Positions 1 through 56,038 of a stretch of 64,000 nt of DNA are shown piece after piece. The notes below the pieces were generated by a model. That model was not told where the DNA came from. It did no database searches and worked only from the letters and a program-made list of their open reading frames with translations. Position 1 is the first letter of the stretch. Every line of letters begins with the position of its first letter. The position numbers were made by a program, and so were the translations under genes. The DNA lies in the NCBI GenBank assembly GCA_002269645.1, contig NIVC01001660.1, positions 1 to 64,000 of the forward strand, read 5' to 3'. The DNA is from Macrostomum lignano. Lineage: Eukaryota.

Positions 1-651
1 TAACGCTGCTGCACTAAACTCGATGTGAGAGCGCGATGTCACTTTGCTTGCATTGCGTTTATAAAAATTGGTACATTATTAACTTTACTGTTGGAATTGA
101 TTTATTCATATTCGTCCGCATTCAGATAATTATATTTCGTTAAGGTTGACGAGTGACGGTGGACTCTCGCTTCGCTTGAGCATCAGTTCTGTTCTGAGTA
201 GTGAAAAACGAAGTCGGATAATTTTTTTCAAAGAAAGTTTTTAAAAATACAGCAAATGTTCTCTGATACTACTGCTAAATATTTATTGGCTGATAGGGTT
301 TTCTGGTCAGTAATTATCTGGTCAGTAATCCGGTCAGTTCCTCTGACGCAGAATTTGATTTATCAAAGTTTGACTTTAAATTGTTCAAATTTATAGATCG
401 TTTCATCGAACTATTGGCAAGTTATCAGAATTCGAAAAAAATATTTTAACCGATATGTATCGAAAAAATATAACACTGAGAAATTCCGGCTTACGGTACT
501 CTCCATTCCAAGTAAAAGTAGCATATTTTTTAAAAACTAAAGAGCAGATATTTAAACAAGGTACAATATTTCATATTAAAACGTTAATTTCGGTAGGATG
601 ATTAGCAATAAGTACAAATGGAATAATGAACGGCGTTAAAGACAAAGAATT

Positions 652-741
652 TCCGGTGAGGCGGATTTGAACCACCGACCTAAGGATCACTGCACATTTG
701 CACTCTACAGTCCTCCGCTTTACCAACTGAGCTATCACCGG
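652..741 (-). tRNA. tRNA-Tyr(GUA) with 17-nt intron (688-704)
   Basis: Minus strand reads CCGGTGA TAGCTCAGTTGGTAAAGCG GAGGA CTGTAG [intron] ATCCTT AGGTC GGTGGTTCAAATCCGCC TCACCGG A. Perfect 7-bp acceptor stem, A and B boxes, anticodon GTA at 706-708, intron after position 37, 73 nt mature. Confidence 0.93.
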
Positions 742-1599: not shown

Positions 1600-3808
1600 T
1601 GATGTAACCGCCCTTGTCGCCTGTCCGCTCCGTAGAGAGACGAACGCATGGCTAGAGGGGGCAATGACCGTAGGCTGCCTATGACCGGGCAATGACCTGA
1701 CGGACCTCCAGCACCAGACTGTCCCGCCCACATGATTAGTAGCTTTGGTAGCGCTTCGTGACCAGAGGGCCAAGGACCCACATGGACCCCACCTGTAGCC
1801 AAGGTGCAATAGTTGGTCACTCGGTCATGGTATGACCGAGTGGCTGCCACCACTCTATGTGACCTGGCGCACCTGGATCTTTCTACCAGACCTCTCGAGG
1901 CTAGAGCCCCGCCTGGATTGGTTACCAGGGGATTTAGGCTAACAGGGGAGACGCATGCAGCCGAGTACAGGGACTCTGCTTGGGGCATGATCGGGAACTC
2001 TGGGCTCAATCCTGGAGGATTTCTCAGCAGGGGATCCTTTGTGGCTGTGAGCGAGGCTGACTTGCGACTTTGATTACTAAGAGTAGTATGAGGCGAACAT
2101 GTACTGTCTACAGTTTAGATTGCTCAGGGCGAAGGGACGCGTTAGCATGGGGTTGCAACCTTCCTACTGCCATTCTGTGCCAAGACTCGCTAATCCTCTA
2201 CTGCACGCACGCGCCCCGCAGCACGCACTCACAGGCGGGCTTTGCACGGGGAGAGGCCATTAGCTTACCCAAACTTCCTTATGCTTTGCCACCCCGGGAG
2301 AAAGGCTTAGCAAGCCATGAGTGAAATGATGGTGAAAGATTGAATAATGATGAAGTTAGTTAATAGTTAATAATTAGGCCCTTAGGCAAATAAGCAGGCA
2401 ATTAGGCGGCTTCACTATTGAGTAAAATACAGCAAAAGATACGGTATCACAATTGGCTCAGCTCTCTAATCAGACAATGGAAAATAGGCAAACCCCGGAT
2501 AAGCAAAGGCAATTAGAGCACAAATTAGTAGCAGGAACTTACCGGCAGCTGCACAGAGAGAGAGAGAGAGACGGAGTGACCGAGGGCGGCTGTAGGCTGC
2601 AGTCAGGCAGACGGTGAAGCGGCGATGCGCTGGAGCGACGAGGCGCTGATGTAGATCAGGCGATGCTGATGATGGGGCGGTATCAGACCGCTGGCCGATA
2701 GGCGAGCTCACTTGGGGAGCTAAGGATAACTTGGCGGTAACAGACCGCGGACCGGCAGGGATTCGTCTTATAGACGAATGGGTCAGAACTCAATCTGACA
2801 GCAAGTCCAAAGAAGGACGAGGAGAGGAACAGAGATAAACTCAGTTGAGTATTCTCATGCCGAAATCGCTTCCTTTTATAGACCTCACAGCCGCCTCCTC
2901 AAGGTCGTTACCATGGCTCCCTCTCTCTGATTGGCTGCCGGCAGAATGACGTCAGAATGAGTCATGATGAGAAGCATGAGACCGGCATAGCAACATGAGA
3001 AATCGGGAAATTGCGCAATCCGGAGGTGGGGTGGGGGGATAATTGGCGCAGCGGGTGGTCGCGAAAGTGTTGCGCAAGCAAACATTGAGAACAATAGGGC
3101 TGGGGTCGAGAACAAAGGAATTGGAAATCGGGGATAATTGGGGAAAACTGAGAACAATGGAAAAGTAAACATTGGAGAAAAGGTGATAATTAGGTGCGAA
3201 AACGAGAACAAAAGAAAGAGAAAATCGGAGAAAATGTGATAATTGGTGGGGGTCGAGAGAACAAAAGAAGCAAAAACGAGAACAATAGAAGCGGAGGTGG
3301 GGTGGGTGTCACATGAGAAATTTGGGAAGGAGAACAATAGCGTGAGAAAAGGTTGCGCAAGAGAGGGGGATGAGTCATCGATGAGTCACCGAGGGGGAGA
3401 AGGGGTCACACGACTTGCGTCACCGTTTGGGAGTTTGAGAGGGGATGGGGAGACGGTGAGCACACAAAGTACTGTAAGTAGACACAGGGAAAGAGGGGAC
3501 AGCGCAGGAAAAGAGTGCAGAGGGAGAAAAAAAAGGAGGAGGTAGAGAAAGTACAGGAAGAATAGGGCGGGAACAGAAGAGATAGGGTAGGGGGAGGTAC
3601 AGAAAGGGGTAGGGGCTCCGGAAAGGCAGGTGTGGCGGCAGGAGAGACGGGACCAAGGCAGCAGGAGGGTGCAGCAGAGCGGGAGTCTCCAGGCCCGGTC
3701 GGAGACCTGGCCGAGTCTCGACAGCTCTGTGCAGAGGGTGCACGGGATAGGAGGCACTTTCGAAAAAGTTCCCATGCCCTATCCCGCGACCAGAGCGTGG
3801 TTACATCA
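1600..3808 (-). repeat. 3' LTR (2209 bp)
   Basis: Direct repeat of 12446-14566 with 10-bp inverted termini. Confidence 0.95.
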
Positions 3809-3821
3809 CACCCCCACTGCC
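3809..3821 (-). promoter_or_regulatory. Polypurine tract
   Basis: Minus strand GGCAGTGGGGGTG abuts the 3' LTR. Confidence 0.7.
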
Positions 3822-4866
3822 TTTTGTGACGGAACTGGTTCCGTCATCATCACTGCCCAACATGGAACCACACAGACGGGAGCGGGATCTCAACCGAACG
3901 TGAAATCACAGAATTAACAAACCGCGAGCGGGAATGGAAAAAGGCGATAAAATAGAGGGGATAGCAATAAATTCACAAACGAGATACATAGGTTGGAGTG
4001 CAATACAGAATTTCAAAAATTTCAACTGTTGCTGTGGCTAAAGTGGGAGGGGGGAAACACAGACAGCGCAATAGTAGGGAGAAAAATAGCGAATTGTCAA
4101 CAATAAATTATCATAATTGGATAGAAGCGCAGCTGGGAAAGAGAGGAAACGGGGAAGGGTGAGGGAAGTGGGGAAAAAGAAGGGGGGAAGGGTTGCTAGC
4201 ACACAGCCAAGGGCAGAGCCTCGGGGAGAATGACGATTACACAGGGGAAAAATACTAATGCAGCGCAGTAAATTAATAAGCTAATTTCGCCGGGAGTTCA
4301 ACCGCACGGAGGCCTAGCGTCCTTGAAGGCTCGGACCCCGCTTCAGCCAGTCAGAGGGCTTCGGGGCGATCGGTTGTAGGCTGGGAGGCGCCGCGCCGTG
4401 CGCTGGCCACTGTATAAAAGGCGCCACTGATAACGGGAGCCGGCTGCCTGCAACCTACACGGAGTCGCAGTTTCCAACCAAGGCACTCAGCGCGATTTTC
4501 CAAACTATACAACTACTCGGTAAGTCCCATCACCAACCTGATTTCCTTTCGCCTATACGTTAAACGAAATCTACCCACTCGCCATGCCTTTCGTTTTAAA
4601 CTGAGCCAATTGCAGTAATAATATATGGCCTTTCTTACGGTAAAAGTAGTGAGCAGCCAACACAGAGCCATTTTTAGGAATTTTTAGAATAATGACACAA
4701 CAATGACTCGTATATTGGTTATTAAAGTTTAAAAATGAATATTATGGAAGAACCGAATATTAATAGGATAATTTCACACACACACACACGACAAACACAC
4801 AACGCAAGGGGCGGAAAGGCGGGTCGGACCGGCCGGCGGACGTCGCTCAGCAGGCAGTCAGCATCC

Positions 4867-6216
4867 TTACTCGAAATGGGCCTCTTGATTTAGCTGGTAC
4901 GGGCCATATGCCGCCACCTGAGCCATGGCACTTGCCCATGCTTCCACATAACGTTGGGCTGCCGCGGCCGTGAGCACCACTCGGTGCCATCGGCTAGGCA
5001 AGATGTCGTTGCGCAGCACGCCCCTCAACTGCGGCAGAGTCGGGATGCCCAGGGCTTGGCATTGGACGACGAAGGCCGCATTCCGTACTTGTTGCAGCCG
5101 TGTCAGAGTTGGTGCAGACAGGGGCGGCTGCGCGATTGCAAAATGCTGCAAAGTGCCACGGGGCACCTCGGCCAGGCCCGCGTAGCCGGGCTCAACGTCG
5201 CCCAGGGCCGCCAACACCCACCCACAGCGGCGATTGAACCGTTGCGAGAGAGTGGCGGCCCAGGCCACTGTGGCAAACGGCGCATAGAGGAGGGGCGCAG
5301 AGGCCGGCGCGGAGGCCGCAAGAATGCCGTCGTGGATGACGAGAGCCTCTTCCCATTCGGCGCCCTCGCTCAGGAAGCCCCAGAGCAGCCCTGGCAGGTC
5401 CGCAGGAAGCATGCCCCAGCGGCTGGCCAAGCTGGCCAGGCCAATCAATAGCCGGGCTCTCTGGGTTGGCGTCAGTTGTCTAGTCATCTGAGAGGAGGCT
5501 GCGCAGCTGATGATCACCTTCTTGTAGACCGGCCGATCGCAGGTGCTGAAGATTGCTGTGATGGGGGCACAGGACGGCGGCCGGGCTGTCAGGTGTGATG
5601 GTTCCTCATCCACAACCTTGCGGAGGAACTTGGCGGCCTGCCGGACTAGGTCGCCGAGGGCGTATTTGTAGGCGCTCTGGGCCGCTGCCTCGATGTACAT
5701 TAACAGCGTATTGTCAACCAATCCCAGCAGGGCCGCTTTTGACAGGATGAGCAGACAGGGCCGGTCCAGGTTGTCGCGAAGTTGGCGCTCTAGAGTCGCA
5801 TGCCTGTCCTCGGCCTGGAGTGGGCCATGATAGGACTCAGGCCCGACCCAGTGCACCAGATCCATAGCTGTCGCCGAAGGTTCGCCAGCCACCTGACCCC
5901 AATCGACTTCTTCTCTTTGCAGGGCGATGTCCACACTTCGGCGGCTGTTGGGCAGAACATCACGCAGGCGGCGGGCCGCCTCGCCGAATTCGGCCGCCAT
6001 GTCCGAAATGTCCGCGGTGTCGCCCCCAGCATTGGCCGGGTCGATTGTCTCGTCACCTTCTTCGACCCTGGCGGAGGCCGCCGCTGGCGGCTCGGGGCCG
6101 TCCTCCGCCTCTTGGATGGCGTCACGGGGCCGCTTTCGGCTAACTGGGCTGGCAGGACGCTCAGACGGTAAGCTGGAGCATAGCTGAATTCGATTGATGG
6201 TAGGCTTCGTGTCCAT
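4867..6216 (-). CDS. Hypothetical 449-aa protein carried by the LTR element
   Basis: Uninterrupted ATG-to-stop ORF. Acidic/Pro N-terminus with SRKRPR (NLS-like) and a helical-looking remainder. No family recognised. Confidence 0.7.
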   Translation of the reverse strand: MDTKPTINRIQLCSSLPSERPASPVSRKRPRDAIQEAEDGPEPPAAASARVEEGDETIDPANAGGDTADISDMAAEFGEAARRLRDVLPNSRRSVDIALQREEVDWGQVAGEPSATAMDLVHWVGPESYHGPLQAEDRHATLERQLRDNLDRPCLLILSKAALLGLVDNTLLMYIEAAAQSAYKYALGDLVRQAAKFLRKVVDEEPSHLTARPPSCAPITAIFSTCDRPVYKKVIISCAASSQMTRQLTPTQRARLLIGLASLASRWGMLPADLPGLLWGFLSEGAEWEEALVIHDGILAASAPASAPLLYAPFATVAWAATLSQRFNRRCGWVLAALGDVEPGYAGLAEVPRGTLQHFAIAQPPLSAPTLTRLQQVRNAAFVVQCQALGIPTLPQLRGVLRNDILPSRWHRVVLTAAAAQRYVEAWASAMAQVAAYGPYQLNQEAHFE

Positions 6217-6308
6217 GTCAAGCTGGATAGTTCATAGAATGCTTCAGCGATTGAAGGACAGAATGATTTCTCTGATTGATGATTTCCAGCTCTGGCAGGC
6301 GTGGGTCT

Positions 6309-6426
6309 TCTTATAGTGCCGGGGCTGGCTTCCCATTGGTTGAGCACATTGGGAGGCACACCTGCTGCGGCCGGGGTCGCCGTTGGCTTGGGACCGCTCG
6401 CTCTAGTCTCCGTGCGCTCTGATTGG
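6309..6426 (-). promoter_or_regulatory. Internal promoter upstream of ORF449
   Basis: Minus-strand CCAAT at 6422-6426 and 6335-6339, TATAAGA at 6309-6315, about 95 bp before the ATG at 6216. Confidence 0.5.
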
Positions 6427-8136
6427 CTGGTTCCGCCGCTTCCTGTTTCCTCACCTGTGAGCAGGGGGCAGACCCGAGACCACCTCCGGTCGCGCCCGCG
6501 GCAGATCCGTACTCCAGCCGACAGAGATCGCACTCCCACCTCACATGCACACATTCAGATCAGGCACACAAATTAATTTGGTTAATATGAATAGAAGAGG
6601 GATTTGGGAGATTAGACTCCGGAGGATAAATGATGATGCGGCCCAACTCCCTTCGATTTCTTCCTTCAACGCCACGCGCACGCAGTTCTCATCCATGCCT
6701 CCGAGACCCTCATAAACTTAACAGCCGAAAGAATTCGAAAGAGGAATTAATCATTAATTTGACTGCCACCAGTTTGATGTACTATTTAAAAGAGAAAGGG
6801 GAACCTACCACCATCTTGGCGCATTACCAAAGAAAAGAAAAGGAGGATCAGCCACCATTTTGAGAGAGGTTGCTAGGGAAAACTGCCACCAATTGCCCTT
6901 CTACCAGAGGAGAGGAAGACGAAAAACTGCCATCACTTAGAGGTGTATCATTAAAAGAAGGCGGGGAAGAAGGCTACCACTACTTGATCACCTAGAGCTC
7001 AAGGAAGGAGAGGGAATGAAGAAAGGAAGAAACCCCCAGGAAGGCCACTACCACACGCCATAAAGTTAAAATCCCCATCTATCTACATCCTAATACCCGG
7101 CTAGTTCCCTACTTCTATTTCATCCCTTAAATTCTCATTTTCAGGATTCCGGCCGCTAGTAGCCGAGCCCATCCTTGAAGAGGAGTCCGACTACGAAGCG
7201 CCCGAAGACAGCCATTCAGAGCCGGACGCCCCCTCTGATTCTGGGCCGGCTGCGCCATCTGGTGCATAGGCGCCGCGGCTCCCGGGCCATGCGACCGCCG
7301 GGCCGCCAGCGAACCAGCGTCCGGGGCCGGTTGGCATCCGGTACCACCGCCGTTGTCAGCCCGAGCGCACGCTCCGCCGCCGGTCGCCGCGGTGACGCCC
7401 GTGGCTGCCGCTCCACAGCCCTTGCCAACCCCTGTGGTGGAGACCGACGGCTCCTGGCATTTGGTCGTGCTGTCGACGGCCCTAATAGCCGGTCTCACAA
7501 TGCACTGGCTACTGCTCTTGGAGCTATTTCTGCGGCTTCCCAACTGCTGATGCTGGTGGTTCTTAATGCTTACTTACTAATTCTGAACTATCTGTCCCCA
7601 TAACTTGACTTTAATTACTTACCTGACTTTACATTGACTAAACCACTGGCCTACTCTAAACTAATTGCTGCCCCATTTGCCTGATAAACTTAATTACATT
7701 GAATGCCCCCCCTATTGCCTCATCGAAACCAATTAAAAGTTTCCCAAAATCGGACTTTCACAAAGTGTGAACAAACACACGAAATCAGACCTAAAGGTGC
7801 TAATTTCCTACGGTCCCAGACTTCCATTGTTCCCAGAAAATCTTAAACAGCGGGGCAGGACCTCCTGTGGAGCAGACCCATAGAAATTTTACTAGTTTCC
7901 AAGTTAATATTTACTGATAGGGAATTAACGCATACTGTACGGGCCTAATTTTCGAGCTAAAATCTTAGATATTTAAACAACACCAACGAGCACGAGGTCA
8001 CAACATAAATTCGAGTAATAGAGGGCATACGTAAATACGCGAAAAGCGGTCTCCAACGGGGCAACACGAGCAAAATTTCGACACGCGAATCGGGGGGGGG
8101 AATTAAGCAATCACTGGCTAGCTACCGATCTGTTAC

Positions 8137-8487
8137 TCAGCGGGGGTCGAATGGGAGACTCACACCTAGCAAGTAAACCTTTTCTGTTCGATAGTCTATG
8201 ATAGCATGCGTACTGGCTAGAAAAGCACTACCCAGGAGGGAAACTGCTGCTGAATTGCCAACGACCAGAAAGAGGATTCTCACCTCTTCTAGCCCAATAA
8301 CTGCTGTGAGGGTGGCCTGGCCTAGCATCTCTAATTCATTGCCCGTGTAGGACACGGCCTTCACACATGGGGGCTCCAGGGCCTCCACACTCTGTCCGGT
8401 AATTTTAGTAAAGTCTTTGACTGTTAGCAAAGACAGCGCACTGCCCCCATCTACCAGGAGGCGGGTGGGAACATTCTCAATTGGCAA
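8137..8487 (-). CDS. Retropepsin-like aspartic protease
   Basis: TRLLVDGGSALSLL (D[S/T]G position), AVSYTGNELEMLG flap-like segment, LLGSAFL...IIDY. Followed by a stop and no RT. Confidence 0.75.
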   Translation of the reverse strand: MPIENVPTRLLVDGGSALSLLTVKDFTKITGQSVEALEPPCVKAVSYTGNELEMLGQATLTAVIGLEEVRILFLVVGNSAAVSLLGSAFLASTHAIIDYRTEKVYLLGVSLPFDPR

Positions 8488-8638
8488 CTCTACAACAATA
8501 TCTCTCCCGCGTTGTCCTCAGCTGGTCTTGGCTGATAGAAATCGGGTACCTTCTCAAATCTAAACTTCTTGCTGGGCGGACGTGGCAGGTTAAGCTGGGC
8601 CCTAGAGAGGGAACGGGGCTGAGTTCGGGCCGGGCCAT

Positions 8639-10076
8639 TCAGCCCTCCCACGGGTTTCCCGAACCCGGGGGCTCTTCAGGCGTGGAAGGAGGAGGCATCA
8701 GAGCTTGCGCGCGCAGCTGGGCGAGCCTCTCCTGCCTCTCCCTGGTAGCCTCGTCTAACATATCTCTGCCCCACTCCTCTAAATCTTGCCTATGGCGATC
8801 AGGTGGCGCACGAAGCTGCAATTGCTGCTGCTGCACACCGCCGGCGGCGCGTGGGCGCTCCTGAATTGCAAGCGGCGGGGGCTGGGGTTGGCGCCAGTTC
8901 CTACTGCTATTAGAGCCGCCCTGCCCCTGCCTCCAGTTCCTGTTGGGAGTGGCGGGGCGAGGGGGCCTCATCTGCTGGGCAGCTGGGCAACAGACTCTGC
9001 TGTCGCCTTCATAGTTTCATTGAGCTGCACCAGCTGGTTGCGCAGATCCTTTTGCGTTTGCTCTAGCGCGCCCAACCTCTCTTGCATCTCTGATAGGCCG
9101 TCACCGTCCTCCTCCGTCTCGTCAGCTTCCTGGTTCACCATCCTGACCACTTGCGAGGGGCCTGGGTGGCTGCTGAGGTTGCAGACGGACTTCGGTGCGG
9201 GACTCAGACCTGGGCGGGCCACTACTGTCCCATTTCCCGGCTAAGTCTGCGGCTTCTAACAGGGCTTGCTGCTGTTCTAACACCTGCTCAATTGTCTGCC
9301 AGCGACGGCTCAACAGATCTTGTCTGACCTGGCGGGGAGCTTAGCGTGTTCCAAGTAGGTGTACACGATTTCTTGTTCTCTCTGCTCACCCTGAATCTGA
9401 GGAAACATGGCCGTTATCTGAGATCTTATCATAGCAGCAAAAGCACTATGTGATTGGCCGGGTTTCTGGCTCAGATTCTTCAGCTTATTTCTCTTAGCCA
9501 GATCAGTGTTGGCCTCGCCCAACTGCTCTCCTAATCTAGATACGAACTGCTCAAAGGGCAATTGCCCGTCCAATCCTAAGGCTAAGTTCTGAAATTCACC
9601 TGGGAGGTGCGAGATGAGCACCTGCTTCCTAGCCTGATCTCCTACAGTTCTCTCCGCGTCCAGCTTGTAGATCATTCTCTCTACCCATTGCACAAAACAG
9701 TGTTCGCCGGGAGAGAACTTTTCTACGTAGATTTTCGGCCTCTGGGCGTCTTGGCCCATGTTTAGCTGGTTAAACGCATTGGCTATAGCGGCAACTAAGT
9801 CTCCTAGCTGCGGGACTGCCTGAGGAGGATTCTGGGCTGCGTCCGGGGGAGCAGCGGCGGCTGCTGCGCCACCCTGATTGGAGCGGGAGCTGCTACTCCT
9901 TCATCTGGTTCCTCAACTACTACTGCTTCTGGAGGCTGAGGGACCTGGTTACCAGCGGCTGCGGCCATTGCGGCTGCGGGGGCGGCAACTGCTGGGGTGT
10001 CAGCGGCCGAGGGTGGTTGACCAGGGGCGTCTGCGCACACAGCTTCTACGACCCTATCTCCACGCGCCCGTGACAT
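8639..10076 (-). pseudogene. gag: Retrotransposon gag, broken by several single-base frameshifts
   Basis: Ala/Pro-rich N-terminus, then gag-like core (VEKFSPGEHCFVQWVERM...LSQKPGQSHSAF), coiled coil and Arg/Gln-rich tail. ORFs 9804-10076, 9310-9759, 9122-9313, 8968-9222 and 8639-8971 join by frame shifts. Confidence 0.75.
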
Positions 10077-12424
10077 GTGAATGCCGGATAGCTGGGGGAG
10101 TACCCACTACCGGGAAGGAAAAGAAAAGAAAACCGGGCAACTACAGGTAAAGACCGAAAAGTTGATCCGAAACACACAAACACATCACACACACACAAAC
10201 ACAGACAAAACCACACACTTGCGGCGTCGAAGAAAACAAATTGAAAAACGGGTGGCTCCACATAATTCCATTTAGGCAGTCCTAACGGCTTCACTCGGCA
10301 AAGCACACTGACTCAAACTGCGGCTACCACTACCAGTTGTCTATGGCACATCCTGACAGGGAAAAATTGGCTATTCAGAGAGACTTGACCTTCATTTTGC
10401 GGCCATGCTAGGGAACCCAAATGCCGACCGTAAACGGACTTACGGCACCTGTACAAATTCTCCCCTAGGGTTGCGCGCCGGACCCCATTTCCTTAAGAAA
10501 GCTACTACGAAGAAGCGTTGGCGCCTGGACCCAAAAACCCAAGTGGCGGGAGCAATCCCCATGGAGGTCCTCCCACTTTACTGCCCTTGCACAGCCGGAA
10601 AACCGTCGGAGTCCAGTGGGGCTTCCACCTCAGGACTACCAATCTTGTACACGCAGCTTCACAAAAGGCGGGAATCCAGCTCCCCTACGTCTAGCAGAAT
10701 CCACAAAAACCAAGACCTCCCCCTTCTGTTCAGAGCGAAGGCGCGCAGCGGGAGTCCAGACTAAACTGTCCCCGAAGTTTTCAGGTTAGGCGGATTACAA
10801 GCCTGAAACTCTCGCCCGCTTTCCTAGGATAAACAGACCTAAGTGAGTATCTTCCTGAAATGCTTGCCCCTCCGATACTCCACCTTTGCTGCAGCTCGAA
10901 ATAGCATACTTGGGACCTTTATCTGATGGCGGAGAAAGTCCTACAGTTGTCAGCCTCTCCACTTTACTGTACTTGAACGCCCGGTTCTACCAGGAGACAG
11001 CGGTACCTCCATCTAGGTTATTCCAAGTTGCCAGAGACGTCAACCCGTCTTATTGACCTTGCGGGGCACTGGGGTGGCACTCTATGTACCGGGGCTTTAC
11101 ATTAGGGGACTGCATGCAACCCTGCGTCTAAGCGCTTAGTGGGCTGCAGTGGCCAGAGGGGAAAAGAGTTGCGCAATAGCGCCTTCCTGGGCCAGGCTGA
11201 CAAGTCGGGCAGGAGCGCCGTTCTACCGGGTCGGGCTGATTGGCACACCCACCTCCCCTATCAGACTGACAGCAGGGGGGAGGAATTACTAAAGGAGGAG
11301 AATGCAGCAGGAAACATTACGAGATCACTGGGGGCCACCAGACTTCCAGTACACCATTCCAATACTCACTGAACTCCACTATCAATAGGATACTATGGGA
11401 TCTACTATTTCCAGCCACTGCACCAGCCCAAATGCAACCAAAGCAGTTACTACCGGGTCTGCAATACAGTGGGGAGAGTCAGCAGACACGTTGGGATCGA
11501 ATCCCAGCCGTGAAGGCACCAGGGGTTACCGCAGAATTCAGGTCCGGGCTGATCGCAGGTATTCCATAGGAGGTGACACTTTTTTTAGCCCGAGATTTTT
11601 GAGTCACACTGATACCCTACAGAGATACAATCACACCGCTATTCCCATTCCTGCGAGACTTTGGTATCCCCCAATGTTTCCAAGGCCATGACTACTGCTT
11701 CCCTTACTATGCATATATAGCGAGTTCCCCATAGCCCTTGATAGCTGTTCATTCTAATGGACAAACAAAACACGCTCCGGTCTCTACGCATTTCTAGGAT
11801 TAACTGAGCGATCAGGGAGAGCGACTGTTACACTCCCCGAGTAAAAGAAAGAGGTAGGACAAAGGAAAGAAATGCTTCGCTTCCAGCTTCCCTGTGCTTG
11901 CGTGATGAGGCTTCCGTACCTGGCTGGCTGTCCACCTCAACACTCACACAGTTCTGCTGTAGGCTAGGCGAGAGAAAGAAAGGGAGGGGAAATAAAGCAT
12001 ATTACCATGAAATAGAAAGTGAGTCCGGAAAATTCACTTTCGCAGTTCTTCACACACTCCGTTACCAGGTAGCTATTCTGATTGTAATCAAATCCGCTCG
12101 TCTACCACTTCACACTTTCTAGCGCTGAAACTGATCGGCTAAATTAATTTTAAATTGAATCAGGGGCTTTTGGCGAATGAATGAATTTGGAAATTTCGAA
12201 TGAATTGAACGAATTCGCAGCCCGAAAAATTTGAAAAGTTACATTAATATTTTTGGATTTTGTTGCCTCACGCCATGGGAGAAGAGAATGACGATTGGCG
12301 ATTTTTACGATTGGTAGATTTAGACATGGCACTCTTTGCGCTTCGGCCACCATTCTGAGGGATGCCACAGGTGCGCTTGTCACATCTAAACCACCAGTCC
12401 GAAACTCAGCGCTGTTTGCACCAG

Positions 12425-12442
12425 ATCCCACCGCTGCCACCA
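12425..12442 (-). promoter_or_regulatory. Primer-binding site complementary to the tRNA-Leu 3' end
   Basis: Plus strand ATCCCACCGCTGCCACCA matches the 3' 18 nt (including CCA) of metazoan tRNA-Leu(AAG/TAG) as recalled. It lies 3 nt inside the 5' LTR. Confidence 0.85.
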
Positions 12443-12445
12443 TTT

Positions 12446-14566
12446 TGATGTAACCGCCCTTGTCGCCTGTCCGCTCCGTAGAGAGACGAACGCATGGCTA
12501 GAGGGGGCAATGACCGTAGGCTGCCTATGACCGGGCAATGACCTGACGGACCTCCAGCACCAGACTGTCCCGCCCACATGATTAGTAGCTTTGGTAGCGC
12601 TTCGTGACCAGAGGGCCAAGGACCCACATGGACCCCACCTGTAGCCAAGGTGCAATAGTTGGTCACTCGGTCATGGTATGACCGAGTGGCTGCCACCACT
12701 CTATGTGACCTGGCGCACCTGGATCTTTCTACCAGACCTCTCGAGGCTAGAGCCCCGCCTGGATTGGTTACCAGGGGATTTAGGCTAACAGGGGAGACGC
12801 ATGCAGCCGAGTACAGGGACTCTGCTTGGGGCATGATCGGGAACTCTGGGCTCAATCCTGGAGGATTTCTCAGCAGGGGATCCTTTGTGGCTGTGAGCGA
12901 GGCTGACTTGCGACTTTGATTACTAAGAGTAGTATGAGGCGAACATGTACTGTCTACAGTTTAGATTGCTCAGGGCGAAGGGACGCGTTAGCATGGGGTT
13001 GCAACCTTCCTACTGCCATTCTGTGCCAAGACTCGCTAATCCCTCTACTGCACGCACACGCGGCCCGCATCACGCACTCACAGGCGGGCTTTGCACGGGG
13101 AGAGGCCATTAGCTTACCCAAACTTCCTTATGCTTTGCCACCCCGGGAGAAAGGCTTAGCAAGCCATGAGTGAAATGATGGTGAAAGATTGAATAATGAT
13201 GAAGTTAGTTAATAGTTAATAATTAGGCCCTTAGGCAAATAAGCAGGCAATTAGGCAGCTTCACTATTGAGTAAAATACAGCAAAAGATACGGTATCACA
13301 ATTGGCTCAGCTCTCTAATCAGACAATGGAAAATAGGCAAACCCCGGATAAGCAAAGGCAATTAGAGCACAAATTAGTAGCAGGAACTTACCGGCAGCTG
13401 CACAGAGAGAGAGAGAGAGACGGAGTGACCGAGGGCGGCTGTAGGCTGCAGTCAGGCAGACGGTGAAGCGGCGATGCGCTGGAGCGACGAGGCGCTGATG
13501 TAGATCAGGCGATGCTGATGATGCTGGGCGGTATCAGACCGCTGGCCGATAGGCGAGCTCACTTGGGGAGCTAAGGATAACTTGGCGGTAACAGACCGCG
13601 GACCGGCAGGGATTCGTCTTATAGACGAATGGGTCAGAACTCAATCTGACAGCAAGTCCAAAGAAGGACGAGGAGAGGAACAGAGATAAACTCAGTTGAG
13701 TATTCTCATGCCGAAATCGCTTCCTTTTATAGACCTCACAGCCGCCTCCTCAAGGTCGTTACCATGGCTCCCTCTCTCTGATTGGCTGCCGGCAGAATGA
13801 CGTCAGAATGAGTCATGATGAGAAGCGCAAGCAAACATTGAGAACAATAGGGCTGGGGTCGAGAACAAAGGAATTGGAAATCGGGGATAATTGGGGAAAA
13901 CTGAGAACAATGGAAAAGTAAACATTGGAGAAAAGGTGATAATTAGGTGCGAAAACGAGAACAAAAGAAAGAGAAAATCGGAGAAAATGTGATAATTGGT
14001 GGGGGTCGAGAGAACAAAAGAAGCAAAAACGAGAACAATAGAAGCGGAGGTGGGGTGGGTGTCACATGAGAAATTTGGGAAGGAGAACAATAGCGTGAGA
14101 AAAGGTTGCGCAAGAGAGGGGGATGAGTCATCGATGAGTCACCGAGGGGGAGAAGGGGTCACACGACTTGCGTCACCGTTTGGGAGTTTGAGAGGGGATG
14201 GGGAGACGGTGAGCACACAAAGTACTGTAAGTAGACACAGGGAAAGAGGGGACAGCGCAGGAAAAGAGTGCAGAGGGAGACAAAAAAAAGGAGGAGGTAG
14301 AGAAAGTACAGGAAGAATAGGGCGGGAACAGAAGAGATAGGGTAGAGGGGGAGGTACAGAAAGGGGTAGGGGCTCCGGAAAGGCAGGTGTGGCGGCAGAA
14401 GAGACGGGACCAAGGCAGCAGGAGAGGTGCAGCAGAGCGGGAGTCTCCAGGCCCGGTCGGAGACCTGGCCGAGTCTCGACAGCTCTGTGCAGAGGGTGCA
14501 CGGGATAGGAGGCACTTTCGAAAAAGTTCCCATGCCCTATCCCGCGACCAGAGCGTGGTTACATCA
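12446..14566 (-). repeat. 5' LTR (2121 bp)
   Basis: Direct repeat of 1600-3808, lacking a 98-bp segment. Confidence 0.95.
13725..13805 (-). promoter_or_regulatory. LTR promoter: CRE (TGACGTCA), CCAAT, TATAAAA
   Basis: On the minus strand, in order: TGACGTCA 13798-13805, CCAAT 13781-13785, TATAAAA 13725-13731. Same motifs at 2874-2954 in the other LTR. Confidence 0.65.
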
Positions 14567-15155: not shown

Positions 15156-15326
15156 CGCAATCGACCAATAAGCAGACTGTTCGAATTCGAGACTATTTGG
15201 CACAATAGGTACGAGGTAAATTGGTAAATTGCAACCATCAAATCGTTGCTTATGCTTGGTCTATATGTTCCCGTAAGCCAATCGAACTTAACTGACACTC
15301 GGGCATCTCCCGACTGGTATCCGCAG

Positions 15327-15665
15327 GCACAACCTTGGCCTGTCGTGGTACCGCGGCCAGATGCCGCTCAGCCGACCCGGCGACGTCACCTTGGAGAAGT
15401 CACCAGCCTATTTCGTCACCGAGGCTGCCCCAGCTCGGGTGTGGCGCATGAACACCAGCATCCAGCTAATCCTCATTCTGCGCGATCCCGTGGCCCGCGT
15501 TGTCAGCGACTATGCGCAGCACGTGCACCGGCGAGTCTCCAAGGACTTGCCGCCCAAGCCGATCGAAAGTCTCGTGCTGACGCGCAACGGCGATGGCCGG
15601 GTGAATCCGAACGCCAAGATGGTGCAAACATCGCTCTATCACAGACATCTGCGGCGGTGGCTCAG
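15327..15665 (+). CDS. HS3ST: HS3ST-like coding exon 2
   Basis: Acceptor ccgcag|G joins exon 1 in phase 2 to give R-HNLGLSWYRGQMP...TLEKSPAYF...LRDPVARVVSDY (3'-PB motif). Donor AG|GTGAGT at 15666. Confidence 0.92.
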
Positions 15666-15962
15666 GTGAGTAAAATCGAGTGGCTTATTGGTTACCCGTC
15701 TGACTCGTATTCGTGTAACATGTGTGAGTTCAAGGCTTAGCGCAATTGGCTCCGCCACCACTTGTCTCGTGGCTCGTGGTTCCTTCACAAGTTACTGAAT
15801 CTTAATCACATTGCTTAACCAGTTCGTAACTCCTGAACCGGGTGACTTCGTGACGCGTTCTTCTCACGAGTTTCGAGTTATCGCCAACTGTATTTGGGTT
15901 TCTGAACGCTTAGAAAAAGTTTTTCTTAACAGCAAAGCCAATTGATTTCTCATACCGCTCAG

Positions 15963-16326
15963 GTACTTCAAGCCCGACCAGATCCACTTGGTGGATGGCG
16001 ATCGGCTGGTCAGTCAACCGCACTCGGAGCTGCAGCAGGTCGAGGACTTTCTCGGCTTAAAGCGGCACATTCGTCCGGAGCATTTTGTCTTCAACGCCAC
16101 CAAAGGCTTCTACTGTCTGGCTCCGTCTGTTAGCAGCGGCCGAGGTAAAAAACGCAGACAGCGCTGCCTCGGCTCCGAGAAAGGCCGCCGACACCCGAGC
16201 GTGGCTAATTCCACTCTGACGGCGCTGCGCCACTTTTTTGCTGGACACGACGAACGCCTCGTCCAGCTGACTGGGCGCACTTTTGATTGGATGCGACGGA
16301 ACGCCCAGCAGTTTGGAGAAGAGTAA
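15963..16326 (+). CDS. HS3ST: HS3ST-like coding exon 3
   Basis: Acceptor ctcag|G in phase 2. Reads YFKPDQIHLVDGDRL...FNATKGFYCL...CLGSEKGRRHP, typical of the HS3ST C-terminus. Stop TAA at 16324-16326. Confidence 0.92.
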
Positions 16327-16792: not shown

Positions 16793-17810
16793 GGCTATCG
16801 CAATTGTGCACCCACTGGCTTGACGAGTTTCAGTTCTGTTGTGGATCTAGATGAATTCTTGATTGCTGATGCAGACGCACGATAAAACTGTGCTGCGATG
16901 ACTTTTTGTTTCTTGGAATATGAACGCACATGTAAAATCCGATTTACATGTTACTTGAATCTGATTTCTCTGCAAGTATTCAATTATTGATTTATTGTTT
17001 AATTAGCTTTCTTCGTATTGCTGTGGTGTTAAAGCAATCGGTTAAACAGCTTTCGCCATTTGTAATTAACTTTTGTTTAAATGAGAGCGATCGATTTACC
17101 CTGGCTACCTATGACAGTTTTGTCAGTTGTAAATAATTTTGTTTGGTTGGTTAGCCTTTCACTTCCGATGTTTGCCCTCATTCTTATAGAAAACGAATTG
17201 TTATTGTTTCTGCATGTATACGACAGTTTTGTTTCCTGTATTAAAATCGCGCTCTCACTCTCACATCGCGCTGCTTTTGCACTGCCAGAAGTTTATAGTT
17301 TCATCCAGCCTATTGCGAGTTTAGTTTTCACTTGACTTCATTCAATATTCGTCGGAGTAAACATTCTGTTATATAAAAATACAATCAAAAAGTAACGTGA
17401 TGAGCCCAGTGATATTCTCAGTTACGTTTGTGTACTTGCTAAATATGAACTCGATCTGAATCTTTGTTACCTGACGCAACTTTTGACGCTCATTTAATAG
17501 ATTTTCAGAGCAGAGAGCTCAGAAAGTGCGAACCCGGATTCCCTTCCCTGACCTGCCCGCCTGCGGCTGCATGATAAAGAGACAGCAGAGAGACATCGTC
17601 TATGGCCAAGCGATAGCCAGTGTTGTCGGATTCAGCGCGCAGGAATGTCGTTTCCGCACTCGGTTCGCGTGCTGGAATGCAACTGTCTATGGTAAAAACG
17701 CCATTGAAATCAAGCAGAAAATCAGTGCAGGAATGATGTGCGATTCTTGCACTATAAAGGAAACGGAACATTAAAGCTTTCGACGATACTCTGGCTCGTG
17801 ATTCTATCTT

Positions 17811-18665
17811 TGGTTTAAGTGTCTATGGTCTCGTATTACTGGTCTCGGTTTAATTGTCTATGGTCTCGTATTACTGCTGGTCTCGGTTTAATTGTCTATG
17901 GTCTCGTATTACTGGTCTCGGTTTAATTGTCTATGGTCTCGTATTACTGCTGGTCTCGGTTTAATTGTCTATGGTCTCGTATTACTGCTGGTCTCGGTTT
18001 AATTGTCTATGGTCTCGTATTACTGGTCTCGGTTTAATTGTCTATGGTCTCGTATTACTACTGGTCTCGGTTTAATTGTCTATGGTCTCTTATTACTGCT
18101 GGTCTCGGTTTAATTGTCTATGGTCTCGTATTACTGGTCTCGGTTTAATTGTCTATGGTCTCGTATTACTGGTCTCGGTTTAATTGTCTATGGTCTCGTA
18201 TTACTGCTGGTCTCGGTTTAATTGTCTATGGTCTCGTATTACTGGTCTCGGTTTAATTGTCTATGGTCTCGTATTACTGGTCTCGGTTTAATTGTCTATG
18301 GTCTCTTATTACTGCTGGTCTCGGTTTAATTGTCTATGGTCTCTTATTACTGCTGGTCTCGGTTTAATTGTCTATGGTCTCGTATTACTGGTCTCGGTTT
18401 AATTGTCTATGGTCTCGTATTACTGGTCTCGGTTTAATTGTCTATGGTCTCGTATTACTGGTCTCGGTTTAATTGTCTATGGTCTCGTATTACTGGTCTC
18501 GGTTTAATTGTCTATGGTCTCGTATTACTGGTCTCGGTTTAATTGTCTATGGTCTCGTATTACTGCTGGTCTCGGTTTAATTGTCTATGGTCTCGTATTA
18601 CTGCTGGTCTCGGTTTAATTGTCTATGGTCTCGTATTACTGGTCTCGGTTTAATTGTCTATGGTC
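17811..18665. repeat. 35/38-bp minisatellite, about 24 units
   Basis: Unit GGTCTCGGTTTAATTGTCTATGGTCTCGTATTACT with optional GCT. No spacers. Confidence 0.97.
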
Positions 18666-18834
18666 CCCTTGACCCCTGCTTCCTACCACTCTTACTGTGT
18701 GCAAGAATGAATCCAACAACACTGCAATTTCCACACTCGTTAGAGTGCGGAAATATACCAGTGATGTAAGAAAAATGCTAGACTTGAAGTAGTCTCTTCA
18801 CTTGGTCTCAATTAGCATGTAGTGTCTGTGTTAC

Positions 18835-19880
18835 CAGAATGAGTGTCTGCGGCACCAAAATGAGTGCCTGAATGCGACACCAAAATGAGTGCCTGAATGC
18901 AGAGCCAAAATGAGTGCCTGAATGCAGAGCCAAAATGAGTGCCTGAATGCAGAGCCAAAATGAGTGCCTGAATGCGACACCAAAATGAGTGCCTGAATGC
19001 AGAGCCAAAATGAGTGCCTGAATGCAGAGCCAAAATGAATGCCTGAATGCAGAGCCAAAATGAGTGCCTGAATGCAGAGCCAAAATGAGTGCCTGAATGC
19101 AGAGCCAAAATGAGTGCCTGAATGCAGAGCCAAAATGAGTGCCTGAATGCAGAGCCAAAATGAGTGCCTGAATGCAGAGCCAAAATGAGTGCCTGAATGC
19201 GACACCAAAATGAGTGCCTGAATGCAGAGCCAAAATGAGTGCCTGAATGCAGAGCCAAAATGAGTGCCTGAATGCAGAGCCAAAATGAGTGCCTGAATGC
19301 AGAGCCAAAATGAGTGCCTGAATGCAGAGCCAAAATGAGTGCCTGAATGCAGAGCCAAAATGAGTGCCTGAATGCAGAGCCAAAATGAGTGCCTGAATGC
19401 GACACCAAAATGAGTGCCTGAATGCAGAGCCAAAATGAGTGCCTGAATGCAGAGCCAAAATGAGTGCCTGAATGCAGAGCCAAAATGAGTGCCTGAATGC
19501 AGAGCCAAAATGAGTGCCTGAATGCGACACCAAAATGAGTGCCTGAATGCAGAGCCAAAATGAGTGCCTGAATGCAGAGCCAAAATGAGTGCCTGAATGC
19601 AGAGCCAAAATGAGTGCCTGAATGCAGAGCCAAAATGAGTGCCTGAATGCAGAGCCAAAATGAGTGCCTGAATGCAGAGCCAAAATGAGTGCCTGAATGT
19701 AGAGCCAAAATGAGTGCCTGAATGCAGAGCCAAAATGAGTGCCTGAATGCAGAGCCAAAAGAGTGCCTGAATGCAGAGCCAAAATGAGTGCCTGAATGTA
19801 GAGCCAAAATGAGTGCCTGAATGCAGAGCCAAAATGAGTGCCTGAATGCAGAGCCAAAAGAGTGCCTGAATGCGACACCA
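18835..19880. repeat. 25-bp minisatellite, about 41 units
   Basis: Unit GAGCCAAAATGAGTGCCTGAATGCA with scattered GCGACACC variants. No spacers. Confidence 0.97.
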
Positions 19881-20791
19881 ACATGAAAAAGCAAAATCAC
19901 CGATTCCCAAAATTGCTGAGGAATTTTGTCGCGTTGAATTTTTGGGCTTTTATCCCCCACCAAAACATCCATGGCGACGCCCCAGAATTTTATTGTCAAC
20001 TAGTATTTGTGCGTCTGTCTTTCGGCCTGCTTAGAACATATAAACGCCATTCGCGTCATGTTCAATCCATTTCATCCTCTAGGTTTATGCATGCATTTTT
20101 CACTTCTTAAGCCCTGTTTCGGCCCCTGTTGGACACATGTACGAGAATTTATAGTGTGCTAGTTGACTAGTAGAAAGCGGCCGGCACTTTAAAAATGATA
20201 CCCACAATTTTTTTTATTTTCAGATTAAACAATTATCAGCATAGTGAATTTCTCTGTTGAATTTACGACTGTCCATCTGCTGCGCTACTGACCAACTTTA
20301 TCAACTGAACAAACAACTAGCGAGCTGGTTTAAACGGGATCCCTACCAAGAAGCTTCAGAAGCTGAGCAATCCAAATGCCGCAGCCACATGCTTTACATT
20401 CGACGGCTGTGCACAGACTTAAGAAGCTCGGATCTTTCAACTGAACCTCGATTGCTATAAAATAACAGCCAGGTTAATTGCATCTCAGCTTGATTTGTCG
20501 CTCTCCTCAAAGCGGCTTTCACGAAGCAGACAAACTCAGCAACTGACAGCCAATTAACATGCTTAACTTTTCTTTTCGGACGGCAAAAGTGCTAACAAAC
20601 TGAGCACAGCCGGTAGAAAAAAGGGACAGAAAATAGCCAGAGTAATAACCAGAGAATAACAGAATTTTTTTCAATAAAGCTAAAGATAAAAGGAAATAAA
20701 TATTAACTTGATGCTCGAAAATGTTTTGAACATTCTGTCAGTCCACGAGTCAAGCAGTTCAAAGACCCTGCAATCAGACTCGGTCCGAGTG

Positions 20792-21886
20792 CTAACGCAC
20801 GCTCTGTCGATTGCTGGCCGTCGAGCTGCTGCCAGAAGCGCCCGGTCGACGACGGCAGGAGGCGCAGCAGCAGCAGCACAGGGACAGCCACACTCGGCAA
20901 AACGCCTCTCGAAAGTTCCGTCCCATCAAGTACGTCACCCAGGACAGAGCGTTGTTCGCGTACAGCAGCGAGTTGAAGTGCCGCATCATCAATATGAAGA
21001 AGTTCAGTCCGAGCTAGCTTATTTAGAATTTGGACTTCGAGCAGAGCGCCGATGCTCCACGGCAGAGACGTGATCAGAAAGAAGACGTTGATGAAGACCA
21101 GCATGAGGCTGATCCGAACAAGCGACCTCTGTCGCTCTCGGTTGCTTCGCTGCTGCTGCCCAGAGCCGGCCGTGTCGGAGTGCATTCGCCGAGCGGTCCT
21201 GTTGTTCCAGGCCAGCAGCAGGCAGATGGCCACCGTGCCCGACGTCAGCGCCAGAACGAGGAACACCCTGCCGAAGTAGAACTCGGCCGGCTGGTACACG
21301 AACATAAGGTAGTTCATGCTTCGTAATCCGCAGGTGTTTGTGAAGTCATTCCACGTTCTATTCGCGATGAACATGATCGGCAGTAGAAGTGACATTGCAG
21401 TGATGAGGCTCAGCATTACCCAGCTTCTCCGATGTGTCAGAATCACCTTGGCCTTCATCGGAACCGCTACTGCAATCAGCCGATCTACCGTGAGACCCAG
21501 TTGAAAAAACTGTATCCCGCTAGCGCAAAGTATGTAAAGAAATCGTACACAATGCACCAAGCGATTCCCCAACCTCTCGGATTAGTGAACCAGGTCCACT
21601 TGTTCGTCTTCACGTAGAATGCCATATAGCCAAAGTAGTGAGTGCTCACTTTGCACGTGAGAATGAGAAAGTCACTGGCAGTGATGATGGTGAGGTACTG
21701 CCTGGTGACGTAGGGAAATGACTTCCTGTTGGACACGATCACGTAGAAGGAGACGGCGTTCGCGACCGCTCCGACCAGACAGAGCAGCGGAAAGAGCCAG
21801 ACGAAGACGTTCCAGATGAACCAGTTCCAGGTGGGGTCGTGGAACCAGGGCTCACTTGCAGCAGCTGTTGTATTGGTGCCGTTCAT
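20792..21886 (-). pseudogene. Class A GPCR paralogue, full length, about 2 frameshifts
   Basis: Highly similar to 51418-52470. Frame changes near 21520 and 21010. Acceptor-like ccacag just before the ATG. Confidence 0.8.
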
Positions 21887-35204: not shown

Positions 35205-36663
35205 ATGACACTTCACGAAGTTGCCATAACCTTGGCAGTGCTGATTTCATTCGCCGACGGTACATCTTTTGTCTTCGACAAGAGGCCGGACTTGTGCCAC
35301 AATGCTGAGACTGCAGCTGACGGTCCGCGCAAACTGCTGGGCGTTGCCGATCCTCGAGTGTGCGCTGTCGAATGCGCGAGCAACACGACTCTGTGCTCAG
35401 TGTATGAGTACTCGCCTAGCAACAGGTCGTGCATTCTTGGAAACAGCTGCGACCTGCTGCTTTTCTGGCAACTCAACGGCGGACCGGCCTGCAAAACGCA
35501 GGTGCTGCGAGGCGCAGCAGACTGTGAGACTGCGTCAGTGACTCCGACTACGACTTCAATTCCGATTACGACTCCCACAATGACTCCTACAACGACCACT
35601 ACGACTCCTACAACGACCACTACAGTTCCGACAACGACCACTACGGCTCCTACAACGACCACAACGACTCCTACAACGACCACTACAGTTCCGACAACGA
35701 CCACTACGACTCCGACAACGACCACTACGACTCCTACAACGACCACTACGACTCCTACAACGACCACTACGACTCCGACAACGACCACTACAGTTCCGAC
35801 AACGACCACTACGACTCCTACAACGACCACAACGACTCCGACAACGACCACTACAGTTCCGACAACGACCACTACGGCTCCTACAACGACCACAACGACT
35901 CCCACAACGACCACTACGACTCCTTCAACGACCACTACGACTCCGACAACGACCACTACGGCTCCTACAACGACCAAAACGACTCCTACAACGACCACTA
36001 CGACTCCGACAATGACCACTACGACTCCTACAACGACCACTACGACTCCTACAACGACCACTACAGTTCCGACAACGACCACTACGGCTCCTACAACGAC
36101 CACAACGACTCCTACAACGACCACTACAGTTCCGACAACCACCACTACGGCTCCTACAACGACCACAACGACTCCTACAACGACCACTACAGTTCCGACA
36201 ACGACCACTACGACTCCGACAACGACCACTACGACTCCTACAACGACCACTACGACTCCTACAACGACCACTACGACTCCTACAACGACCACTACAGTTC
36301 CGACAACGACCACTACGGCTCCTACAACGACCACAACGACTCCCACAACGACCACTACGACTCCTTCAACGACCACTACGACTCCGACAACGACCACTAC
36401 GGCTCCTACAACGACCAAAACGACTCCTACAACGACCACTACGACTCCTTTAACGACCACTACGGCTCCGACAACGACCACTACGACTCCGACAACGACC
36501 ACTACAACTCCTTCAACGACCACTACGACTCCTACAACGAGCACTACAACTCCTTCAACGACCACTACGACTCCGACAACGACCACTCCGGCTACTACAA
36601 CAACCACTTCAGCTGCAACTACGACTCCGGCCACTACGACTCCGGCTCCACTGGCACTAACAG
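35205..36663 (+). CDS. Secreted PAN/Apple-like + long Thr-rich mucin stalk, copy B exon 1
   Basis: Near-identical N-terminus to copy A, about 50 PTTTTT(T/V/A) units, same PAPLALTG end, donor ACAG|GTATGC. Confidence 0.78.
35575..36630 (+). repeat. 21-bp coding tandem repeat (Thr-rich)
   Basis: Unit ACAACGACCACTACGACTCCT with codon-position variants. Confidence 0.95.
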
Positions 36664-37131
36664 GTATGCATAGAAAGAAGTTCAGGTAGCCAAGGTAGAC
36701 GAGTAGAGGAGCTCAACTTTTGCCTATTCACCGTCATAAGAGACAGGCAACCTGCTAAGACAGCAAATATAGGCGCACTTCTGGACTGCGGCCCCTCCAA
36801 TTAAAATTCCTGCGTACGCACTGACCAGCGATCAGTTATCGGTCCCTGTGGCTTCCGTCAGCGACCATTCGTTGGGCCTATTTCTTTCGTACCTGATTAA
36901 TTGAAAATTCTTTTTTTCGTCACGGTTTCTCAAGGGTTCTCAAATATTAATGCAGATCCCATAAAGCAATTTGCATATTTTAAAAGCTCAAACTTCGTAA
37001 TTTTAATCTGTACGTTGCTAAACACTCCGACGTGTGGTCATGATGCATTTTAAATTCGTCTTGATCTGACTTGACTTAGCGACAGGGGTTTCCGGGCATC
37101 CGGATACAGCAGGGAGGGGTCGCCCATTCCG

Positions 37132-51200: not shown

Positions 51201-51417
51201 TTTTTGTGAAAAAAATGCCGACGATGTATACTGCTAGTAAATCAGTAGCCACTGATAACTGGCCAAGCATGTAACGCAAGGAATCGGCTTATTCAGCAGT
51301 CTGTCATTGGCTGGCGAGAGTCGGTGAAAGTTTAGTCATCCAGAGAAGTATATGTATAAGTAGCCCCAAACTGAGACCTCAAGACAAGTTAGCTAAGCCA
51401 CAATTCAAATTTTCACC

Positions 51418-55165: not shown

Positions 55166-56038
55166 TCTCATTCTCACGTGCAAGGTGAGCACTCATTACT
55201 TTGGCTACATGGCATTCTAGTGAAGACGAACAAGTGGACCTGGTTCACCAATCCGAGAGGTTGGATACTCGCTTGGTGCAATGTGTACGACTTCTTTACC
55301 TACTATGCTGTCATGGGTGTTCAGTTCTTCCAACTGGGTCTCACGGTAGATCGGCTGATTGCGGTAGCGGCTCCGATGAAGGCCAAGGTGATCCTGACTC
55401 ACCGCAGAAGCTGTCTGATGCTGAGCCTCATCACTGCAACGTCACTGCTACTGCCGATCATGTTCGTCGCGAATCGGACTTGGAACGACGCCAAAAACTC
55501 GTGCGTTCTACGCAGTGAAGACTATCTAGTGAACGTGTACCAGCCGGCCGAGTTCTACTTCGGCAGGGTGTTCCTCGTTCTGGCGCTGACGTCGGGCACG
55601 GTGGTCATCTGCGTGCTGCTGGCCTGGAACAACAGGACCGCTCGGCGAAGGCACTCCAACACGACCGGCTCTGAGCAGCAGCAGCGGAGCAACCGAGAGC
55701 GACAGAGGTCGCTTGTTCGGATCAGCCTCATGCTGGTCTTCATCAACGTCTTCTTTCTGATCACGTCTTTGCCGTGGAGCATCGGCGCTCTGCTCGAAGA
55801 CCAGCTGGTTAATGAACTTGGAGTCAACCCTTTTATATTGATGATGCGGCACTGCAACTCGCTGCTGTACACGAACAACGCTCTGTCCTGGGTGACGTAC
55901 TTGATGGGACGGAACTTCCGAGAGGCGTTTCGCCGAGTGTGGCTGTCCCTGTGCTGCTGCTGCTGCGCCTCCTGCCGTCGTCGACTGGACGCTTCAAGCA
56001 GCAGCTCGACGGCGAGCACTCGACAGAGCGTACGTTAG
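55166..56038 (+). pseudogene. 5'-truncated GPCR paralogue (from TM2), one frameshift
   Basis: Homology begins abruptly at LILTCKV. The rest closely matches the copies at 20.8 and 51.4 kb. Confidence 0.85.

Follow-up and report, generated by a model that had tools for sequence, protein, structure and literature searches.

Non-autonomous LTR retrotransposons normally depend on a complete partner, and the dependence is not returned. In wheat, the gag-protease-only, 'semi-autonomous' gypsy elements RLG_Sabrina_SA and RLG_WHAM are described with a co-evolving RT/integrase partner, RLG_Wilma, and Sabrina variants carry unique short ORFs (PMC9744471). For RLG_Quinta the partner RLG_Cereba has its own protease and a full Gag, and the dependence runs one way (PMC11302176). 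Elements without gag or without pol that are complemented in trans, BARE-2 with BARE-1 and TR-GAG, and the gag-protease GAG/PROT families of sugar beet are further cases (PMC4350172, PMC13570524). In the accessible portions of these papers, the mobilising partner of the plant pairs is complete (PMC9744471, PMC11302176, PMC4350172, PMC13570524). Both extra ORFs and semi-autonomous elements with gag and protease have already been described, mainly from plants, and the arrangement described below is categorically new only if obligate reciprocity holds.

Extra genes in LTR elements also have precedents. Bdelloid (PMC5408684) and plant Retand (PMC11963269) elements carry modular extra ORFs, sense or antisense, before the 3′ LTR; those described in the available text are named enzymes, env-like proteins and TRP28, whereas the ORF studied here matches no Pfam family and lies on a pol-less segment. 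CERV, a novel nuclear accessory protein of the gypsy-type element Cer1 of Caenorhabditis elegans, is required for the export of unspliced RNA (PMC10309623). It is a functional analogue for the proposed role of the ORF only, with no sequence link found; as described there, the element behind CERV is autonomous and expresses the protein from a spliced mRNA. Troyka is reported to have non-autonomous copies, and the accessible part of that report mentions no such pair (PMC12440569). A survey of Macrostomum lignano starts from RT, its main text contains neither 'protease' nor 'non-autonomous', and its supplement 1 has no domain table (PMC12801592); a preprint scores copies without any one domain as truncated, in the part accessible (10.1101/2024.12.18.629116). 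No reciprocal pair of LTR elements was found in the open literature, a scope that leaves out subscription journals and Repbase Reports.

The locus described here occupies part of a 64-kb window, the whole stretch of DNA analysed (64,000 nucleotides), and contains an LTR retrotransposon of a family termed A (Table 1). The most probable reading, to which we assign a probability of about 0.62 weighted towards the architecture, is that its 449-aa ORF is an accessory gene on the gag-protease half of a complementing LTR-element pair, likely encoding a trans-acting nuclear regulator.

Table 1. Features of the window, with positions counted from its first nucleotide (C100, a diverged family A copy; partner, the RT-integrase element sharing the LTR).
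Feature	Position	Strand	Remarks
LTR retrotransposon family A, gag-protease segment	1600-14566	minus	12,967 bp; 4-bp target-site duplication
5′ LTR	12446-14566	minus	about 99.3% identical to 3′ LTR; lacks about 97 bp of it
Primer-binding site	12425-12442	minus	common to partner and family B
Leader	10077-12424	minus	2.3 kb; about 98.7% to partner, plus first ~45 gag codons
gag	8639-10076	minus	capsid-like core and C-terminal half; single-base indels break window copy
Slippery heptamer	8654-8660	minus	before −1-frame protease
Aspartic protease, DGG motif	8137-8672	minus	−1 frame; then stop, no pol
Promoter-like module	6309-6426	minus	CCAAT at 6426, 6352 and 6339; TATAAGA at 6315
Accessory ORF	4867-6216	minus	449 aa, 1350 bp; N-terminal part acidic and variable, with a basic patch; core conserved
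Polypurine tract	3809-3825	minus	
3′ LTR	1600-3808	minus	99.86% identical to LTR of RT-integrase partner
Antisense TATA box and splice-donor-like site	4413-4525	plus	candidate; conserved in C100; within 3′ region common to partner
Antisense GT-AG intron	6168-7144	plus	donor at codon ~16 of accessory ORF
Antisense coding exon	7145-7550	plus	acidic, Pro/Ala-rich, hydrophobic C-terminal segment; broken in window copy
Host sulfotransferase exons	914-1212, 15325-15659, 15957-16326	plus	Pfam sulfotransferase
GPCR gene	20706-21581	minus	
GPCR gene	51397-52467	plus	
GPCR gene	55112-56035	plus	
GPCR gene fragments	near 29095, 42232, 47933		
Minisatellite array	17761-18711		35-38 bp
Minisatellite array	18712-19990		25 bp
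Minisatellite array	35442-36700		21 bp
RT fragment of another retroelement	62034-62603	plus	

The element has the hallmarks of Ty3/gypsy retrotransposons, namely an LTR pair with TG...CA ends, a target-site duplication, a primer site, which we take to be of the tRNA-Leu type, and a polypurine tract. Its gag and protease, homologous to those of complete elements, gave weak Pfam matches below cut-off (PNMA and gag-asp_proteas), and the protease would be made by −1 frameshifting at the slippery heptamer. RT, RNase H and integrase are absent from the window element; the Ty3/gypsy order RT-RNase H-integrase is found instead in the partner that shares its LTR. The element thus resembles known gag-protease elements in having no RT or integrase and in sharing LTR ends and primer site with its mobiliser. 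No pol follows the protease at any of 20 further loci, chosen mainly for a gag/protease match without an ORF match; these loci include one partner copy, four copies that end early or are truncated, and one interrupted by an unrelated element. The pol-less protease has a dN/dS of 0.06 in family B, a sister family described below, indicating purifying selection; within family A it shows only seven differences, too few for an informative ratio. Young LTR pairs with target-site duplications occur in gag-protease and partner segments alike.

The partner, termed partner A, is represented by ten copies, one of them partial, which share with family A the LTR, primer site, 2.3-kb leader, first ~45 gag codons and 3′ region. 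Over LTR, leader and 3′ region alone the identity is 97-99.7%, and the shell of LTR, primer site and leader is 98-99.9% identical. Between these shared ends lies one 1543-aa frame, consisting of a capsid-like domain (25% identical to the family A capsid), a proline-rich linker, a stretch preceding RT that is presumably a dUTPase-like remnant, RT, RNase H and integrase. The YIDD motif of RT and the acidic motifs of integrase are retained; the C-terminal half of Gag is missing. Sharing of the whole LTR and leader between both segments, at about 99%, sets the pair apart from Sabrina/Wilma as described in the accessible text, as do the animal host and a partner with neither a detectable protease nor half of Gag; the combination of a gag-protease-only element with an RT/integrase partner is common to both systems (PMC9744471). 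BARE-1 is complete, and the available text on it describes no reciprocal pair with one LTR (PMC4350172).

The protease was sought in two ways. Partner A contains no D[STG]G[AS] motif, and a profile based solely on the proteases of families A and B found nothing in six frames of eight partner A and two partner B copies. In a leave-one-out control the profile recovered the protease of a third family at E 4e-7; its failures, a degraded type of element (C550, E 0.5; C757, E 2.9) and two of 16 relatives, weaken the argument for reciprocity. These relatives, drawn from 120 database matches and four genomic relatives, have the same pre-RT stretch and at least 170 residues upstream of it; 14 of the 16 carry a protease upstream of that stretch, where partner A has the capsid-like domain instead. 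A plain autonomous helper was dropped as an identity for partner A after this test, and a complete mobiliser with protease, of the Sabrina_SA/Quinta type, was not found among the eight partner A and two partner B copies. A search of the genome for LTR-primer junctions gave 86 matches, only part of which were opened, so that a rare complete element may still exist. C550 and C757 belong to another gypsy family with a tRNA-Leu-type primer and a frameshifted pol, either degraded or likewise protease-less.

We consider it likely, from this gene content, that the two segments depend on each other reciprocally. The partner could nevertheless use the protease of a different gypsy family or manage without any processing. 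One-way parasitism of that kind, with a self-sufficient RT-integrase element that uses an unprocessed polyprotein or a borrowed gypsy protease, and a gag-protease satellite whose ORF serves the satellite itself, for example by favouring its own RNA, would match the semi-autonomous gag-protease elements described in plants, such as wheat Sabrina with Wilma, as far as the accessible text goes (PMC9744471). It would accommodate the capsid-like domain and intact enzyme motifs of the partner, the excess of gag-protease over partner loci (57 versus 10) and the confinement of the ORF to the gag-protease element. We nonetheless judge it unlikely, because the two partners, which group as a clade, have neither the protease nor the C-terminal half of Gag, implying an old common loss, and because close relatives mostly retain the protease at that position.

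Reciprocal dependence gains context from a second pair. Family B has a different LTR and a gag core 42% identical to that of family A. Its own partner, partner B (C3095 and C1757), has LTR, leader and 3′ region in common with it at 96-98%. Identity between partners A and B is 56-65%, and partner B likewise has no detectable protease; both fetched copies are frameshifted in the capsid-like part, a point against complementation. Partners A and B form a clade in an RT tree (100/100, 40 rows) and in a capsid tree (100/99, 8 rows), in which the six capsids are all separated from the two gags used as outgroup. Derivation of partner A from the gag of family A was rejected (p-AU 0.004). The partner clade suggests that the split between gag-protease and pol predates the divergence of A and B, and each pair would have kept a common shell since then. 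Two degraded elements, C251 (L289-L290) and C1491, have an LTR and leader 75-79% like those of family B; C251 holds partner-type pol pieces and is possibly a third pair.

The initial annotation had drawn attention to an undisrupted ORF with the NLS-like motif SRKRPR, and such an ORF is present. It had also contrasted the intact ORF with the broken neighbouring gag, a contrast that proved specific to this copy: gag is intact, at 479-481 aa, in six of nine other fetched copies of family A, and the indels of the window gag (around 8837-9333) do not appear in contigs of the sequencing runs, including DNA-like ones, in which that stretch is covered. Across the genome, 16 of 37 loci have a whole ORF and the gag frame is open for at least 489 codons at 25 of 57, so that neither is more intact than the other; the argument for selection from a broken gag beside an intact ORF fails on these counts and on the gag of the other copies.

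Selection is instead evident from substitution rates. C100 is a young copy, with LTRs 99.5% alike, whose ORF region differs from that of the window by 20-34% in DNA. The ORFs of the two are 77% identical, with dN 0.14, dS 1.34 and a dN/dS of 0.11 (bootstrap 0.07-0.14), a single-pair value, like the other ratios here, at a dS near saturation; the comparison among copies proposed at the outset thus points to a selected gene. The ratio is lowest in the C-terminal part. For gag, the same pair gives a dN/dS of 0.10 at a dS of 0.16. The cassette at ~4500-7700 is far more diverged between window and C100 than the LTR, leader and protease (2-7%), which would reflect module exchange by recombination between copies.

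The ORF of family B, 363-391 aa, occupies the same place, is colinear with that of family A at 22-24% identity and has a dN/dS of 0.10 (0.07-0.15) within the family. A profile search of 1.84 billion proteins returned two matches, and the cluster of one of them yielded, from public contigs, a full-length homologue of 437 aa that is 30% identical. Residues H295, G297, Y311, A312, P313, W319 and A320 are invariant in the seven alignment rows. The ORF represents a new protein family, marked by an invariant core of H-x-G / YAP / WA. The basic patch of the family A protein was not found in family B, nor by pattern in the homologue P0009. Searches of the genome with the 449-aa protein, its family B sister and two outside homologues gave only matches of 26-100% identity that, where examined, belong to the two LTR-element families; the suggestion of a captured host gene is not borne out, no named protein having matched.

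An env-like nature had been doubted for want of a signal peptide or membrane anchor, and a hydropathy scan, the sole test of this, agrees: the N-terminal maximum is 0.31, with no hydrophobic N-terminus, and the best 19-residue value, 1.71, is borderline and not kept at that position in the homologues. The 'env position' assigned to the ORF holds in that it lies downstream of gag-protease, but the term is loose for an element that has no pol and in which an antisense exon intervenes. To judge from its sequence, the ORF is a real, selected, non-env accessory gene inside LTR elements. At 14 of the 20 further loci it is deleted, 11 of them sharing one breakpoint, and about 6-7 different flanks surround the form with the deletion; this suggests that the form moved after losing the ORF, which would then not be needed in cis.

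The fold of the protein gives few leads. Pfam and PDB sequences held no match, PHROGs gave a single one at E 0.45, a word-indexed protein search restricted to near lengths returned no named homologue, and the Atlas held nothing usable. Structure models reached pLDDT 37 and 38; from such a low-confidence model, VIA-align retrieved only generic helical bundles (residues 181-297), Foldseek found no viral match under E 0.001, and the core is predicted to be mostly helical with short strands at 293-300 and 332-335. No named family and no usable fold came out of these searches. The motif of nucleases of the YqaJ/lambda-exonuclease kind is PDG...EIK...Q, which the HDG...YAP...WA block resembles by eye; together with the short strands and weak Atlas leads to PDDEXK_3 and PDDEXK_11 (0.76-0.77, below the useful range), this would fit a captured, degenerate PD-(D/E)xK nuclease that binds nucleic acid. 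Such an origin is very improbable, since neither Pfam nor PDB nor PHROGs supports it and the E-x-K residues of these nucleases are absent. A YqaJ identity was likewise not supported: a profile-profile comparison with 18 YqaJ proteins gave a probability of 0.06 and a score below the shuffled median. The YqaJ family had no match in the element's own genome at first look.

Upstream of the ORF, a promoter of two CCAAT boxes and a TATA box had been proposed; the boxes and TATAAGA are present, but the CCAAT boxes number three. Shuffling the 300 upstream bases produces such a module in 0.6% of cases, yet the window has 11 of them, which makes conservation a better argument than rarity. C100 keeps the TATA box and the CCAAT boxes at 6426 and 6339, with that at 6352 changed; divergence is greater from the TATA box to the ATG than in the boxes. 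Eight runs were compared; by their cover of host introns, X9 and X14 are RNA-like and X15 and X18 DNA-like, and X1, X4, X6 and X8 have no silent control and give unstranded contigs over the ORF. Both RNA-like runs cover the ORF in unstranded contigs; in X9 one contig spans it (3820-7173) and gag cover is almost nil. Run contigs extend across the promoter region, the leader (10282-12435) is uncovered in three of the four runs of the first set (X1, X4, X6, X8), and no sense splice joint in the element was found in the contigs of the eight runs.

On the opposite strand, a spliced antisense gene overlaps the ORF. The GT-AG joint from 6167 to 7145 appears in contigs of two of the eight runs, from two studies, and not in those of the other six, which include both DNA-like runs. 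The joint is deep in X6 and X8, where much of the ORF cover may be antisense RNA. The donor is kept in C100, the exon is full-length and open in five of nine other copies, and its dN/dS is 0.20 in its own frame; the opposite frame sharing third positions gives 0.29, with stops, and other frames are not low. In family B the donor lies at the same ORF codon and in the same phase, and leads to an unrelated-looking exon product of 174 aa with no hydrophobic tail. The hydrophobic C-terminal segment of the family A exon scores 2.15. This tail, the company that the ORF keeps with gag and protease, the helical core predicted at low confidence and the basic patch not conserved in family B would suit a two-segment system in which the 449-aa protein serves in the cytoplasm as an adaptor for particle structure or packaging, with Gag or the common leader as its target, or acts in particle trafficking with a membrane-anchored antisense product. 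We regard this role as decidedly unlikely, given the conserved promoter-like module of the ORF, its lack of fusion to Gag and the tail-less antisense product of family B.

A complementing pair with a trans-acting regulator could work as follows. Gene content, the common shell, selection, co-divergence and the loss of the ORF in mobile copies are read from the sequences themselves; particle, packaging and maturation steps are modelled on standard gypsy biology. Gag of segment 1 would build the particle, with protease supplied through the −1 frameshift, and the capsid-like domain of segment 2 would co-assemble into it, carrying RT, RNase H and integrase. The segment 1 protease would release the segment 2 enzymes and mature both. 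The common leader and primer site would allow packaging and copying of both RNAs, and template switching would maintain a homogeneous shell around inner cassettes that diverge. In the weakest step, the 449-aa protein would be made from the internal promoter, enter the nucleus and raise full-length RNA output of both segments, through RNA export or protection from silencing, so that individual copies can lose the ORF. By analogy with CERV, a trans-acting nuclear role in regulating how much full-length RNA is produced is a tentative assignment, somewhat less probable than its negation, and the absence of a family match, models of so low a pLDDT and a basic patch not found in family B speak against it. 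That the whole forms an obligately segmented animal retrotransposon, in which neither half moves alone, which has co-diverged into two pairs and whose accessory protein and antisense gene govern the partnership, we put at even odds.

A pol of the genome studied is almost identical to a protein assigned to Macrostomum lignano, so that this flatworm is very likely the host. The element lies inside an intron of the sulfotransferase gene, presumably heparan-sulfate 3-O-sulfotransferase-like, and RNA-like runs show the exons on either side spliced together. The GPCR genes of the window form a rhodopsin-family cluster of single-exon members about 90% alike, some partial. The stretch at about 650-740 (minus strand) resembles, to the eye, an intron-containing tRNA-Tyr gene; ARAGORN reported no tRNA in the window. 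DNA-like runs cover the 5′ LTR roughly 20-50 times more deeply than the interior, and, although depth is not copy number, this suggests many solo LTRs or further families with the family A LTR. Tandem element copies with a common LTR occur in C546, C4958, C3414 and C254. Contigs C2239 and C2895, and dozens like them, are 77-84% identical to a family A protease fragment and adjacent DNA with no gag nearby, and possibly represent an older short derivative.

A reciprocal split, if true, would amount to a segmented genome among retroelements, in which the ratio of Gag to enzymes would be set by the copy number and expression of two elements, not by a frameshift. Annotation that starts from RT would miss the gag-protease half of such a system, and its counterpart would be classed as damaged. 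The likely host, a flatworm, is tractable to transgenesis, which places RNA analysis, localisation, knockdown and particle proteomics within reach.
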